17,832 nucleotides of DNA. Origin: a virus (lineage: Duplodnaviria > Heunggongvirae > Uroviricota > Caudoviricetes). Below the pieces are notes generated by a model, which did no database searches, was not told where the DNA came from, and worked only from the letters and a program-made list of their open reading frames with translations. Within the stretch, counting starts at the first letter, position 1, and each line of letters opens with the position of its first letter. The stretch covers positions 1 to 17,832 of IMG/VR virus record IMGVR_UViG_2537561685_000014. One strand, written 5' to 3'. This document shows, piece after piece, positions 2,245 to 5,703 of the stretch. A program made the translations under genes and the position numbers.

Positions 2245-2247
2245 AAG

Positions 2248-2273
2248 CTAAAAGCCACCGTAGTGGCTTTTAG
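2248..2273. terminator. Bidirectional terminator-like hairpin between convergent genes
   Basis: Perfect 11-bp inverted repeat CTAAAAGCCAC / GTGGCTTTTAG with CGTA loop, T-rich on both strands; sits 4 nt after the Q stop. Confidence 0.6.
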
Positions 2274-2450
2274 CATTTTAGGATTGTGCAGGTAATGTTT
2301 TGTTCAATTTAGTAAAGAAGTTAGATTGGCTTGTTACAGTACGTCGACTCTTTCCAGAAGTACTCAACTGAAAGAAATCATTGATGCTTTTGGGTTGAGT
2401 TCTTTCATAGGCTTGCTTAAGTGACATGTGTTCCCCTTGTCTATTTGTTG

Positions 2451-3734
2451 CTATGACCGTGAAAAGTAGTGATGGTTCAGTTCTTTTGCAAAATAGTGCT
2501 TACGTTTAACCCAGATAAAACCATCAGCTTTAGAAATGATTGCAACATCTATGGGGCCTCCCACTGTTTCAGTATCATCGGAGACCTTGCGCTTGAAAGC
2601 GGTTAAATTTACTAATGATTCAGCCATATAAGCTAAATCTTGCTTGGGTAAAAACTCGATCATATTTACGACTTTGTCAACATAGTTTTCTCGGACAAAG
2701 CTATCAATACGCCCCTTGCAATCGGAAACAGTTCTGCGCACTACATCAACTATAGCATCCTTGGCTCCTTCGATATCTGAAGTGGGCACCAAATCTGTGA
2801 TTACTGAATCAATACCATCAAGTAAATCGCCGATAGAACGTTGATACTCAGCATGAAGATTTTGGATAAGATGTGAACTAGCTCCTTGCATGAAAGCAGA
2901 AACTTCATCCTCTTGCGCAAAGGGAGTCACGCCGCAATTAGGAGTGATGCAGCACTTGTCAGCATCTGTGGTTTTCCTTATTTTATCATTAAAGAAGCCA
3001 CAAACTTCATATGATAATACTTTAGGGTAATAGTCTTTATCGCCATAACCTGCAATCACAATCCCAGAGACGGAACCAATATCACTTTGCTTGCATATCA
3101 TAGCTGCCAATACATCACTAACTGCTTTTGTCAACTGTGGAGTTATGGATATTGAATCAAAGTCACTAAACTTTTGAGCAATGATGCGTTGGGTAATTGA
3201 TGAAGCATAGGTTTGGGCTGCTTGTTCATCATCCGGAGTAAAACCATCAAAGTAATTAATATCAGATAATTTTGTAAGGAGATCGTTGCAATAATTCGTG
3301 AGGTCTGTAACAAATTGATTCTTATCGAAGTTAACGAGATATGTTGGTTCGAGACCTTCAGAAAAAGCATCAACAAGCATGCTGAATACAATCTCGCTCA
3401 GGAAGTGATAAAGATGAGCCTCACGCATACCTGGTGTGATGATTGATTTAGCTGACTGTAGATAATTGAAGAAATCCTCAGCATATTCCTCCAAAGAGTC
3501 AAAACATTTAGAGCCTAAATCCTTTCTATAAGCCTTAATGATAAGCTCCCATGGAGCTGTGCAGAGATCACCAGTTCCATATACCATCAAACCTACAGGA
3601 TGATGTTTAGTGAGAGCGAAAAGCTTTTCAGCGCCATTATAGATTTTATGTTTGCCGCCTCCAGAAATCGTTACAGCTGAATCTGCGGCTAAAGCTACTG
3701 CGGTCTTGTTAAATACGGCTATTTCTGCTGTCAT
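2451..3734 (-). CDS. Proteasome-beta/HslV-like Ntn-hydrolase homolog with large extra regions (427 aa); function unknown
   Basis: Long minus-strand ORF, markedly AT-rich compared with its flanks. N-terminus MTAEIAVFNKTAVALAADSAVT fits the Thr1 ... Asp17 ... Lys33 layout of proteasome beta/HslV; VGLMVYGTGDL, IVIAGYGDKD and C-terminal TVGGPIDVAIISKADG resemble other conserved proteasome segments. Family assignment is by recalled motifs only. Confidence 0.6.
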   Translation of the reverse strand: MTAEIAVFNKTAVALAADSAVTISGGGKHKIYNGAEKLFALTKHHPVGLMVYGTGDLCTAPWELIIKAYRKDLGSKCFDSLEEYAEDFFNYLQSAKSIITPGMREAHLYHFLSEIVFSMLVDAFSEGLEPTYLVNFDKNQFVTDLTNYCNDLLTKLSDINYFDGFTPDDEQAAQTYASSITQRIIAQKFSDFDSISITPQLTKAVSDVLAAMICKQSDIGSVSGIVIAGYGDKDYYPKVLSYEVCGFFNDKIRKTTDADKCCITPNCGVTPFAQEDEVSAFMQGASSHLIQNLHAEYQRSIGDLLDGIDSVITDLVPTSDIEGAKDAIVDVVRRTVSDCKGRIDSFVRENYVDKVVNMIEFLPKQDLAYMAESLVNLTAFKRKVSDDTETVGGPIDVAIISKADGFIWVKRKHYFAKELNHHYFSRS

Positions 3735-3768
3735 TTTTTACATAGGGTTTATATGTTGTGTAATGAGA

Positions 3769-3797
3769 AAAATACAAAAAAATTAACGCGTACGCAA
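3769..3797 (-). promoter_or_regulatory. Candidate sigma70 promoter for the minus-strand gene
   Basis: On the minus strand: TTGCGT (3797..3792), 17-nt spacer, TATTTT (3774..3769), about 35 nt upstream of the ATG at 3734. Weak Shine-Dalgarno. Confidence 0.3.
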
Positions 3798-3842
3798 AAA
3801 TTCTTGTAATCTGTTAAGAGTGGTTACTTCGCCACACAGCTT

Positions 3843-3868
3843 AAACCCGCCGTCGAGCGGGTTTTTTT
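3843..3868 (+). terminator. Intrinsic terminator-like hairpin
   Basis: Stem AAACCCGC / GCGGGTTT with loop CGTCGA, then TTTTGT on the plus strand. No obvious plus-strand gene ends here; may insulate the island. Confidence 0.45.
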
Positions 3869-3990
3869 GTACCTGTAAACTTGGTGCAGTACGGTAAACA
3901 CGCTGGTGGTAGTGAATACTGACTTTTTATCTTGCTGGCTTTTTAGACAAGAGTTATTGGTATGTCATGTTAACCAGAAGGGAAAAAGAC

Positions 3991-4185
3991 ATGCTAAAAC
4001 AGCAAGATATGACAGAAACGGCGAAAGTTGTTTTTAATGAATTAAGCATCGAACCGGCAACAGTCGGGGAGATTGCACAAAACACATACCTTTCACGCGA
4101 ACGCTGTCAGTTAATACTGACCCAGTTGGTTATGGCGGGGCTGGCAGATTACCAGTTCGGCTGTTACAGACGTCTTCAGCAATGA
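3991..4185 (+). CDS. Small winged-helix/HTH DNA-binding protein (64 aa)
   Basis: ATG 3991 preceded by AAGGGA (the ORF track starts at an upstream ATG 3967). Segment ATVGEIAQNTYLSRERCQLILTQLVMAGL looks like a helix-turn-helix; overall layout resembles small FaeA/PapI-like regulators (tentative). Confidence 0.5.
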   Translation: MLKQQDMTETAKVVFNELSIEPATVGEIAQNTYLSRERCQLILTQLVMAGLADYQFGCYRRLQQ

Positions 4186-4334
4186 AGGGCTTTTAATTTG
4201 TGAAAATGGGCGGCTGGTGGGTGTTGGTAGCACCTGCCAGCCATTCGCTCATGCTTACTGGTCACAAGCGAACCACGGCCCACTGCTTTAGCGCAAAAGC
4301 AGAGTGAGCCTACCAGAGTTACGCTTACTGATCC

Positions 4335-5381
4335 ATGAAAAATACTGTAAAAATAAACAGTGTTGATTTAATCAACGCTGATTGCCTGCATTTTATTCAG
4401 TCCCTGCCTGATGATTCCATTGACCTGATTGTTACCGATCCGCCTTACTTCAAGGTGAAACCCAACGGTTGGGACAATCAGTGGAAAGGGGACGAAGATT
4501 ACCTTAAGTGGCTGGACCACTGTCTGGCCCAGTTCTGGCGGGTGTTGAAACCTGCCGGAAGCCTTTACCTGTTCTGTGGGCATCGCCTGGCATCTGATAT
4601 CGAAATCATGATGCGTGAACGCTTTAATGTGCTGAACCACATTATCTGGGCGAAGCCGTCCGGACGCTGGAACGGATGCAACAAGGAAAGCCTGCGGGCG
4701 TATTTCCCGGCAACAGAGCGCATTCTGTTTGCTGAACATTATCAGGGGCCATACCAGCCCAAAAATGACGGCTATGCGGCAAAGGGGCGCGAGCTTAAAC
4801 AGTGCGTCATGGCCCCGCTGATTTCTTACTTTCGTGATGCGCGAGAATCTCTGGGAATAACATCAAAACAGATAGCGGAAGCCACCGGAAAGAAAAACAT
4901 GGCGTCACACTGGTTTGGTGCCAGTCAGTGGCAGTTGCCGAACGAGGCTGATTACAAAAAACTTCAGGCGCTGTTCGCGCGTGTTGCAGCAGAAAAACAC
5001 CAGCGCGGGGAGCTGGAAAAGCCGCACCACCAGCTGGTCAGCACATACAGTGAACTGAACCGGCAATATGCCAGCCTGCAGGAGGAGTATAAATCCCTGC
5101 GGCGTTATTTTTCCGTATCAGCTGCTGTTCCGTATACGGATGTCTGGACGCACAAGCCTGTGCAGTATTATCCAGGCAAACATCCCTGTGAAAAACCGGC
5201 AGATATGTTGCGTCAGATAATTACTGCCAGCAGTCGCCCCGGTGATTTGGTCGCTGATTTTTTTATGGGGTCTGGCTCAACAATAAAAGCAGCACTTTCA
5301 CTGGGACGTCGCGCAATTGGCGTGGAACTGGAAGAAGAGAGATTTAATCAGACTGTAACTGAAATAAAAAATAATCGTTAA
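4335..5381 (+). CDS. DNA methyltransferase, beta-class (probably N6-adenine), orphan
   Basis: 348 aa. Catalytic motif IV LIVTDPPYF near the N-terminus and AdoMet motif I DFFMGSGST near the C-terminus; this IV-before-I order is typical of beta-class amino-methyltransferases. GC content is host-like, unlike the upstream AT-rich gene. Confidence 0.85.
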   Translation: MKNTVKINSVDLINADCLHFIQSLPDDSIDLIVTDPPYFKVKPNGWDNQWKGDEDYLKWLDHCLAQFWRVLKPAGSLYLFCGHRLASDIEIMMRERFNVLNHIIWAKPSGRWNGCNKESLRAYFPATERILFAEHYQGPYQPKNDGYAAKGRELKQCVMAPLISYFRDARESLGITSKQIAEATGKKNMASHWFGASQWQLPNEADYKKLQALFARVAAEKHQRGELEKPHHQLVSTYSELNRQYASLQEEYKSLRRYFSVSAAVPYTDVWTHKPVQYYPGKHPCEKPADMLRQIITASSRPGDLVADFFMGSGSTIKAALSLGRRAIGVELEEERFNQTVTEIKNNR

Positions 5382-5549
5382 ATATGCATTTAATAATTTC
5401 TTTATTTCATAAAAAATAAAAATATATACGTATATTTACAAATCTTGATATGATTTTCCATTGAAAAGAGAGCTGGCATTATTAATATCGGTACCCGGTT
5501 CCGAAGGGGATGTAAGCGCGGTCATTTTTATTTCTCTTGAGGAACCTGT

Positions 5550-5625
5550 GCCGACTTAGCTCAGCAGGCAGAGCAACTGACTTGTAATCAGTAGGTCACC
5601 AGTTCGATTCCGGTAGTCGGCACCA
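5550..5625 (+). tRNA. tRNA-Thr (anticodon UGU)
   Basis: 76 nt; 7-bp acceptor stem GCCGACT/AGTCGGC; D arm GCTC/GAGC; anticodon stem ACTGA/TCAGT with loop CTTGTAA; T-loop TTCGATT; ends ACCA. One A-C mismatch in the T-stem. Resembles host thrU. Confidence 0.75.
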
Positions 5626-5628
5626 TAT

Positions 5629-5703
5629 GCGGGTATCGTATAATGGCTATTCCCTCAGCCTTCCAAGCTGATGATGCGGGTTCGATTCCCGCTACCCGCT
5701 CCA
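5629..5703 (+). tRNA. tRNA-Gly (anticodon UCC)
   Basis: 75 nt; perfect acceptor stem GCGGGTA/TACCCGC; anticodon stem TCAGC/GCTGA with loop CTTCCAA; T-arm GCGGG-TTCGATT-CCCGC; ends TCCA. Very close to E. coli glyT as I recall it. Confidence 0.8.

Follow-up and report, generated by a model that had tools for sequence, protein, structure and literature searches.

An apparently exchangeable cassette between the antiterminator gene Q and a candidate late promoter in a lambdoid Escherichia coli prophage, with a proteasome homolog and a small partner as candidates for anti-phage defence

In the DLP12 prophage of Escherichia coli K-12, which has the gene order quuD - nmpC - essD/rrrD/rzpD, the gene for an antiterminator of the PF06530 type (quuD) is followed by convergent cargo, the porin gene nmpC disrupted by IS5, and then by a promoter-terminator block with a holin gene about 120 bp further on. 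Shiga toxin (Stx) phages of the 933W/24B type have an antiterminator Q of the same family, a block consisting of late promoter pR′, Q utilization site (qut) and terminator tR′, and a late-operon leader that holds tRNAs and cargo together with several terminators to read through. A third group, comprising phiP27, Stx2a_WGPS2 and SerU-LTIIb, has a backbone of helix-turn-helix (HTH) gene, methyltransferase gene, tRNA genes and holin gene. In another type of phage, P2-like prophages and P4-like satellites have defence hotspots (Rousset et al. 2022, PMC9122126; Vassallo et al. 2022, PMC9519451), where conserved phage genes surround a short AT-rich variable locus in which unrelated anti-phage systems interchange. 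Here, we analyzed a stretch of 17,832 nucleotides from a lambdoid prophage of E. coli (IMG/VR record IMGVR_UViG_2537561685_000014, positions 1 to 17,832, referred to below as the window), and specifically the interval between its Q gene and its lysis genes, which contains a cassette of two genes, one for a 427-amino-acid (aa) protein with the predicted fold of a proteasome beta subunit and one for a 49-aa partner.

Set against these systems, the architecture of the interval is of a known kind, matching the DLP12 and Stx-phage layouts in the databases, and the content of the cassette is a new defence candidate. On the plus strand, the genes for DUF968 and RusA are followed by Q (1891 to 2244; 117 aa from the RefSeq start, with the open reading frame (ORF) opening at 1882), which belongs to the antiterminator family (PF06530 Phage_antitermQ, E = 1.3e-43; phrog_79; WP_000532207.1) and is 46% identical to QuuD and 44% identical to the Q of 933W/24B-type phages, while the first holin gene (PF16931) starts at 6451. 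An earlier note on this DNA, made from the letters alone, had given these ends and the genes, tRNAs and hairpins between them correctly, and had read 2245 to 5703 as a single accessory island, bounded by two hairpins, that separates Q from a late promoter located further downstream. We find, with good confidence, that the region from 2245 to 6450 is better described as three separate things arranged around the late promoter, namely an exchangeable cassette convergent to Q in what we call slot 1 (2221 to 3768, GC content 0.391), the late promoter itself, and cargo in the leader of the late operon. Homology between the window and four prophages with the same Q ends at 2220/2221, eight codons before the Q stop, and restarts at 3768/3769 (blastn). 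In addition, a block homologous to the late promoters of 24B and DLP12 lies inside the supposed island, at 3783 to 3868, which leaves only the convergent cassette between Q and pR′, and both hairpins turn out to be terminators, the first (2247 to 2274) common to Q and the cassette and the second (3843 to 3868) of the tR′ type.

The two halves of the interval also differ in distribution and in composition. The region from 1880 to 6460 is 99.9-100% identical to nine complete genomes, mostly of human enterotoxigenic E. coli isolates, out of 5,426 searched, and the cassette of the window is likewise found in 9 of the 5,426 complete E. coli genomes. The HTH-methyltransferase module, in contrast, is found in a large number of genomes, so that the contents of the interval, described in the note as unusual, are unusual for the cassette and common for the module with its tRNAs. 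Similarly, the proposed compositional discontinuity is present only in the first half: deviation is confined to approximately 2001 to 4000 (GC 0.39, trinucleotide distance z 2.2-2.5), whereas the methyltransferase (GC 0.49) and tRNA part is indistinguishable by composition from the rest of the phage. That 2245 to 5703 was nevertheless acquired as one hairpin-bounded unit, inserted between Q and a downstream late promoter near the lysis genes, seems to us very improbable. Each gene of the interval is dispensable in some relatives, phages of the L052 type pass directly from the cassette to the pR′ element and the holin, and the GC content of the interval as a whole (0.435) lies below that of the window (0.517), all of which a single island would explain; yet the breakpoints fall at 2221 and 3768 rather than at 5703, and the hairpin at 3843 is a plus-strand terminator in the middle of a conserved regulatory block rather than a border.

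The assignment of the late promoter is based on a comparison of 80 IMG/VR loci, in which Q is 86-99% identical to that of the window, and RefSeq relatives, giving a total of 83 same-Q loci; both flanks were located in each of the 80. When the right junctions were aligned over all cassette types, unrelated sequence gave way at a sharp boundary to a conserved block with the consensus (C/T)TAACGCGTACGCAAAAA..TTGTA…TGTTAAGAGTGGTTACTTCGCCACACAGCTTAA, followed by a G+C hairpin and a T run. From TAACGCGTACGC through the T run of the terminator, the block is kept in every context, with all sequence upstream of it unrelated, and the 14-nt core ACGCGTACGCAAAA (3786 to 3799) is invariant in 20 of 20 aligned sequences, which represent 17 cassette types. 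In many loci these ~90 bp are the sole conserved part of the right flank, indicating that the block travels with Q and not with the HTH-methyltransferase module. Furthermore, in L052, a representative of the commonest cassette type (23 loci), a gene for a lambda-S-type holin is located 150 bp past the block and is followed by Rz. In the 933W-like phage 24B, the counterpart of this 85-bp block starts 12 nt ahead of the Q stop codon and is annotated as a putative late promoter, qut and terminator, the two sequences aligning in register; the block is also 91% identical over 78 nt to a segment of DLP12 located 120 bp upstream of essD. Given the conservation of the right flank, the position of the holin in L052, the alignment with 24B and the match in DLP12, we propose 3783 to 3868 as the Q-dependent late promoter of the window (candidate pR′/qut) with a tR′-type terminator. 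Of the 5,426 complete E. coli genomes, 2,417 (~45%) have the pR′ block.

Within this block, the pR′ candidate (3783 to 3812, plus strand) consists of a −35 hexamer TTAACG at 3783-3788, an 18-nt spacer and a −10 hexamer TAATCT at 3807-3812, that is, a sigma-70 promoter of moderate consensus match with an intrinsic terminator close behind it, upstream of the lysis genes. It is followed on the same strand by an initial transcribed region (3813 to 3842, GTTAAGAGTGGTTACTTCGCCACACAGCTT) that is conserved in all same-Q loci and likewise in 24B and DLP12, the Q proteins of which share only 44-46% identity with that of the window; since a "putative Q utilization site" is annotated in the equivalent block of 24B, this region is a candidate for the qut or pause site. 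The terminator itself (3843 to 3868, plus strand) is made of an 8-bp G+C-rich stem and a T7 run; its hairpin (3843 to 3864, followed by seven T on the plus strand) folds with −12.3 kcal/mol and is homologous to the terminator that follows pR′ in 24B. An imperfect dyad centred on GCGTACGC (3788 to 3795) overlaps the −35 region. This dyad, located at 3783-3800 in the window, 526-541 in L181 and approximately 4697-4713 in L194, differs between Q subfamilies (TTTACGATCGTAAA in 24B, TTTACGTACGTAAA in DLP12 and TTAACGCGTACGCAAAAA in the window), whereas the transcribed part of the block is nearly constant, which makes it a candidate Q-binding element and a candidate determinant of specificity.

Three points weigh against the promoter assignment: the two hexamers match the consensus moderately, a consensus scan did not list the late promoter, and the annotation of pR′/qut in 24B is itself labelled "putative." One could therefore ask whether the 85-bp block is instead a recombination or insulation element, or a promoter of the HTH gene combined with a terminator that stops read-through from the cassette region. 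The weak promoter signals would suit such a function, and the sharp cassette boundary, 15 bp upstream of the block, can be read as a site-specific junction. We consider this very improbable, because the block is retained in many loci that have no HTH gene, where it precedes the holin, because its homology to 24B extends over annotated pR′, qut and terminator right from the end of Q, because its dyad near the −35 hexamer varies from one Q subfamily to another and its transcribed part does not, and because the left junction lies within coding sequence, as expected for homologous rather than site-specific exchange. Under the proposed late-promoter assignment, Q made from the early transcript would act in trans at 3783-3842, so that the distance from its own gene would be irrelevant. 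The Q-modified RNA polymerase would then read through the terminator at 3843-3868 and through two further ones at 6062-6081 and 6411-6426, expressing the HTH protein, the methyltransferase, the tRNAs and the lysis and structural genes. The assignment locates the late promoter for this group of phages and distinguishes two cargo sites that tend to be treated as one, the first of the nmpC type and the second of the stx type. This helps to predict whether a given cargo is expressed in the lysogen or only upon induction, a key question for toxin-converting phages.

Between Q and the late promoter, the 83 same-Q loci carry 17 unrelated cassettes, which are 1.2-3.0 kb long, have a GC content of 0.32-0.43 and contain genes that lie nearly all on the minus strand. 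The synteny comparison thus bears out the view of the earlier note that this is a cargo hotspot, in that relatives with the same Q and lysis modules carry other contents or nothing. Conserved flanks enclose unrelated content in related elements, and, judging from these alignments, the body of Q and the pR′-tR′ block are the conserved anchors between which material is exchanged among related prophages. The exchange extends into Q itself: its C-terminal tail, the last 4-14 residues, changes with every cassette and stays short and hydrophobic (L004-L087; for example ITSVIACK, CLAMLAYSMA, VVSILV and CICLILS), and in the window the last 8 codons of Q (2221 to 2244) are part of the variable cassette. 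Directly after the Q stop, an inverted repeat is visible by eye in at least 6 of the 17 cassettes. In the window, this hairpin (2247 to 2274) has a 12-bp stem with T runs on either strand, folds with −19.5 and −22.2 kcal/mol on the two strands (z −5.7 and −7.5), and is a bidirectional intrinsic terminator common to Q (plus strand) and the convergent cassette (minus strand). As the left junction lies inside the coding sequence of Q and shows graded divergence, it fits homologous and not site-specific recombination, and related prophages would exchange cassettes through recombination of the former kind in the two anchors, the Q body and the pR′ element. Site-specific, integron-like cassette exchange was considered and rejected on the same grounds; no repeats stood out in the junction alignments, for which no dedicated repeat search was run.

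The layout suggests that the slot-1 cassette is a self-contained unit, convergent to Q and ending at the terminator that it has in common with Q. It would have its own promoter near 3735-3770, so that its expression in the lysogen would be independent of late transcription; a weak candidate on the minus strand (TTGTAT-18-TATAAA, approximately 3752 to 3781) can be found by eye. It is tempting to speculate that early transcripts running past the Q terminator are antisense to the cassette and may damp it during the phage's own lytic growth.

To see what kind of cargo the slot holds, the alternative cassettes were scanned with PADLOC, in which PDC entries stand for candidate systems and not for validated ones. 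Known or candidate defence systems were matched by 9 of the 17 cassettes, among them PD-Lambda-5 A and B in L047, a PD-Lambda-5_A-like protein in L061, PDC-S42 in L038, PDC-M53A/B in L069 and L081, PDC-S33 in L033, a caspase-like protein in L050, and NsnA/PD-T4-2_A together with a C5 methyltransferase in L086. In phiP27, a PD-Lambda-1 homolog lies directly after a Q-like gene, on the plus strand; this Q-like gene has no nucleotide homology to the Q of the window, and we therefore count its position as an analogous and not as the identical slot. PD-Lambda-1 and PD-Lambda-5 were named in the functional screen of Vassallo et al. 2022 (PMC9519451), where, in the parts available to us, lambdoid prophages are mentioned as carriers and a Q-adjacent position is not. 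A limited literature search found no description of the lambdoid Q-adjacent slot as a defence hotspot, and the papers on Tai and Gifsy concern other loci. On the sequence comparisons, then, slot 1 is a cargo hotspot that often holds anti-phage genes and is not exclusively devoted to defence. It resembles the P2 and P4 hotspots in its conserved surroundings and its short, AT-rich and interchangeable content, and differs from them in the type of phage and in its site between an antiterminator gene and the promoter target of the antiterminator. The slot between Q and pR′ is anchored on both sides, with the pR′ anchor occurring in nearly half of the complete E. coli genomes, and could be mined systematically for defence genes.

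One occupant of the slot deserves separate mention. The commonest cassette (23 of the 83 loci; L041 8334-10723, L070 5517-7818) encodes an NA37/nucleoid-associated protein of ~390 aa (PF04245) and a second protein of ~400 aa that belongs to no family; neither of them matches PADLOC, and the pair is another candidate. A convergent two-gene cassette also occupies slot 1 of Stx2a_WGPS2, with a content different from that of the window, and slot 1 is absent from 24B, in which the promoter overlaps the Q stop codon and the leader is made up of ileZ/arg tRNAs and stx.

The larger of the two cassette genes of the window (2451 to 3734, minus strand, GC 0.40) encodes a protein of 427 aa that corresponds over its full length to phrog_5990; its unnamed homologs of equal length number more than 6,000. 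Scans of Pfam, NCBIfam and PADLOC (the last to E 1) gave no match for this protein or for the 49-aa protein, and the proteasome beta-subunit fold (N-terminal nucleophile type, T1-like) was identified by structure prediction alone. Proteins known as "Proteasome homologs with Multiple Insertions" (PMI) were described by Fuchs, Alva and Lupas 2021 (PMC8665760), and two of their groups, PMI-3 and PMI-4, have long insertions after H1/H2 and between H3/H4. In the predicted model of the 427-aa protein, the core is interrupted by helical segments at approximately residues 95-215 and 287-360, that is, after H1/H2 and between H3/H4. Across 34 aligned members, down to 40% identity, M1-T2, D18, K37 and G48 are invariant, and there is a C-terminal motif GGPxDVAxISK. 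Numbered after removal of Met1, the invariant residues become Thr1, Asp17, Lys36 and Gly47 and match the Thr1/Asp17/Lys33/Gly47 of PMC8665760; the motif and a weak hidden Markov model alignment suggest that K37 is the equivalent of the catalytic Lys33. A profile search of solved structures returned sub-threshold hits to archaeal proteasome beta subunits (E ~1.5) at the sites of the conserved residues, which we regard as a hint and not as evidence. With a proteasome-beta core carrying the Thr1/Asp17/Lys33/Gly47 set, no propeptide and long helical insertions, the protein is, according to the predicted structure, a PMI-type proteasome homolog. PMI-4 fits best, an assignment made by architecture and by the spread of the family over bacterial phyla, Euryarchaeota and phages. 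The PMI paper (PMC8665760) gives neither a function nor a gene context nor a partner gene, whereas the protein in the window does have a partner gene.

This partner is an ORF of 49 aa (MSLKQAYERTQPKSINDFFQLSTSGKSRRTVTSQSNFFTKLNKTLPAQS; 2278 to 2427, minus strand) that begins 23 nt past the stop of the 427-aa gene and is preceded by the Shine-Dalgarno sequence AAGGGGA. It is unannotated in the RefSeq record of the window, and counterparts elsewhere are called only intermittently by gene finders. Versions of the cassette from Enterobacter and Klebsiella, with large proteins that are 86% and 63% identical, respectively, keep the small protein conserved as MSLKQAYERTQPKS[IV]NDFF…NFFTKL. To survey the position more widely, we took 79 usable loci of archaea and of bacteria from many phyla and asked for an ORF starting between −25 and +35 nt from the stop of the large gene. 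An ORF of 40-100 aa was present at the partner position in 69 of the 79 loci, compared with 95 of 318 control positions (30%), and for 44 of these 69 small proteins blastp detects a significant match in another locus. Many of them contain a motif of the type [YF]xS[MI]xE[FY]Exx[FY]FPxS. The presence of a conserved small ORF next to the large gene indicates that the unit is a two-gene operon.

We then considered where else the pair occurs. In Enterobacter and Klebsiella prophages, it occupies the same Q-adjacent, convergent slot. In Klebsiella Rac-like and Gilliamella lambdoid prophages, it lies directly downstream of a cI-type repressor gene and in the same orientation, the position that rexAB occupies in lambda. 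In Serratia and Alteromonas, it follows the primase/replication gene of small elements that carry an integrase. The pair also adjoins a type I restriction-modification operon and an integrase in Vibrio parahaemolyticus, forms the last genes of Streptococcus satellite prophages, and stands beside the lysis genes in Providencia and Stenotrophomonas phages; in the Providencia phage PSTRCR_117lys it is on the late strand, between a methyltransferase and a holin gene. These recurrent contexts of a defence type, in five kinds of mobile element, would by guilt by association be consistent with a role in defence. Taken together, anti-phage defence appears to be the likeliest role of the cassette, and the pair would protect the lysogen from superinfecting phages through proteolysis or peptide ligation in which the small partner takes part. 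More speculatively, the proteasome homolog may be a Thr1 protease or a ligase that acts on the small partner or is controlled by it. For a large family of proteasome homologs, this is a first hint at function, and it comes with a conserved small partner gene.

Several points weigh against this reading. Among the 17 cassettes, 8 have no PADLOC match, and the two commonest ones (23 and 16 loci) belong to these; the slot holds non-defence cargo as well, such as nmpC in DLP12, so that position alone is no proof of defence. The proteasome-homolog family itself is without a match in PADLOC, and a literature search turned up nothing that ties proteasome homologs to phage defence. The family is very widespread, occurring in many bacterial and archaeal genomes, archaeal metagenome-assembled genomes included, and could have a housekeeping or another role. 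A consensus promoter scan gave no promoter for the convergent cassette. Finally, the IMG/VR loci are mostly prophages of sequenced enterobacterial isolates and partly redundant, and the survey of cassette occupancy covers Q of the window type. In a rival reading, the slot-1 cassette is a moron with a function outside defence, either a factor of lysogenic conversion or host physiology (for instance a protease or ligase with host proteins as its targets) or a factor of phage development. The porin gene in DLP12, the missing PADLOC match of the family, the negative literature search and the wide spread of the family speak for it, as does the pair on the late strand of PSTRCR_117lys, which could be late-expressed there. 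We rate this as possible but somewhat doubtful, given that the pair recurs at classical exclusion or defence positions, that more than half of the cassettes from the same slot match known or candidate defence systems, and that the convergent, insulated layout fits expression in the lysogen over expression in lytic growth. The wider proposal, in which the PMI homolog, its Thr1 exposed by loss of the Met, and its ~50-aa partner form an unrecognized two-gene anti-phage system and the interval between a PF06530-type Q and pR′ is a major undescribed defence hotspot of E. coli, is put forward tentatively, at a little under an even chance. If it is true, the system is spread over most bacterial phyla and methanogenic or anaerobic methanotrophic (ANME) archaea, shuttled by prophages and satellites, and its chemistry is threonine-protease or connectase-like peptide ligation, with the small protein as substrate, inhibitor or sensor.

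Downstream of the tR′-type terminator, the comparisons suggest that the HTH gene, the methyltransferase gene and the tRNAs are optional leader cargo of the late operon. The HTH gene encodes a winged-helix protein of 64 aa (3991 to 4185, plus strand; 72 aa from an alternative start at 3967; phrog_331, E = 5e-35; WP_001355891.1), which has weak hits to TrmB and DprA_WH and whose counterpart in phiP27 is named a TrmB family regulator. It is followed by the gene for a DNA methyltransferase of the N6-adenine/N4-cytosine type (4335 to 5381, plus strand; PF01555, E = 5e-45; PADLOC MTase_II, E = 2.5e-151). The two genes form a module with 82-92% nucleotide identity to phiP27, SfV, mEp460, SerU-LTIIb and many Stx1/Stx2 phages, and this module is missing from many phages with the same Q. 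A type II restriction-modification system was considered in view of the MTase_II profile match and rejected, as the neighbours of the methyltransferase are the 64-aa HTH gene and the tRNAs, with no ORF of endonuclease size; having no partner endonuclease, the methyltransferase is an orphan enzyme. Its role might be to methylate progeny DNA against restriction, and that of the tRNAs to supplement the tRNA supply.

The tRNA genes themselves, tRNA-Thr(UGU) at 5550-5625 and tRNA-Gly(UCC) at 5629-5703 (both on the plus strand; ARAGORN; Rfam RF00005, 69.8 and 59.6 bits, respectively), are the only elements returned by an Rfam scan of the whole window, which gave no RNA element in 3735-3966 or 5704-6450. 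The same Thr and Gly pair occurs in L004, L005, L061 and L086, and other relatives have other sets (Met, Lys, Thr and Gly in L038; Ile and Arg in phiP27; Ile, Arg and Arg in Stx2a_WGPS2). The fractions of ACA and GGA codons per gene show no clear pattern that would match the two tRNAs to the demand of the phage. Ahead of the tRNA genes, the segment from 5382 to 5549 is very AT-rich (GC 0.30) and contains a promoter-like site, a candidate sigma-70 promoter (5461 to 5488, plus strand, TTGAAA-16-TAATAT) that comes from the consensus scan only, with 9 of 12 positions matching. In 24B, a "putative tRNA promoter" is annotated at the equivalent place, and lysogens may express the tRNAs as well.

Between the tRNAs and the holin gene lies what we call slot 2, the "stx site" (5704 to 6450, plus strand), which in the window is a non-coding spacer of 747 bp containing the terminators at 6062-6081 and 6411-6426. 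It has no ORF of at least 60 aa, and its DNA matches in the phage collection are limited to non-coding or "hypothetical protein" stretches. The window thus carries no toxin operon between tRNAs and holin, and the interval is free of toxin and porin genes, as had been noted from the sequence before. In this interval phiP27 has stx2e, and the window and phiP27 are no longer homologous from 5333 until 6358. Slot 2 is likewise the site of stx2a in Stx2a_WGPS2, whereas eltIIb of SerU-LTIIb follows the endolysin; none of these toxins is present in the window. Stx phages and DLP12, said earlier to carry cargo at the same position, do both carry cargo, but at two different sites, stx in slot 2 and nmpC in slot 1; in DLP12, there is no HTH gene, methyltransferase gene or tRNA between the promoter-terminator block and the holin. 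L005 and L006 have TerB and DUF3927 genes in slot 2. SerU-LTIIb (L002 1122-3178) contains a tandem duplication of tRNA, spacer and holin, in which tRNA-Arg/Gly and holin1a are followed by tRNA-Thr/Gly and holin1, indicating that the leader region also rearranges by internal recombination.

Slot 2 of the window is followed on the plus strand by the lysis cassette, with a holin (6451 to 6843), a second holin (6833 to 7111) and a GH108 endolysin (7113 to 7658), as annotated in RefSeq and matched by PF16931, PF05449, PF05838 and PF09374. Further downstream, a gene for a Bor/Iss-type serum-resistance lipoprotein (8347 to 8640, minus strand; iss in RefSeq) is a second classical moron in the window. 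The copies of the prophage differ in integrity: in strain 120899 (L003, 1865-5070 and 23561-26176), the early region has been invaded by IS3 and IS100 and contains non-phage genes (a BCCT transporter and ParA), and the gene for the large terminase is split by ISCro1, whereas in the window the terminase ORF (10104 to 12029) is intact.

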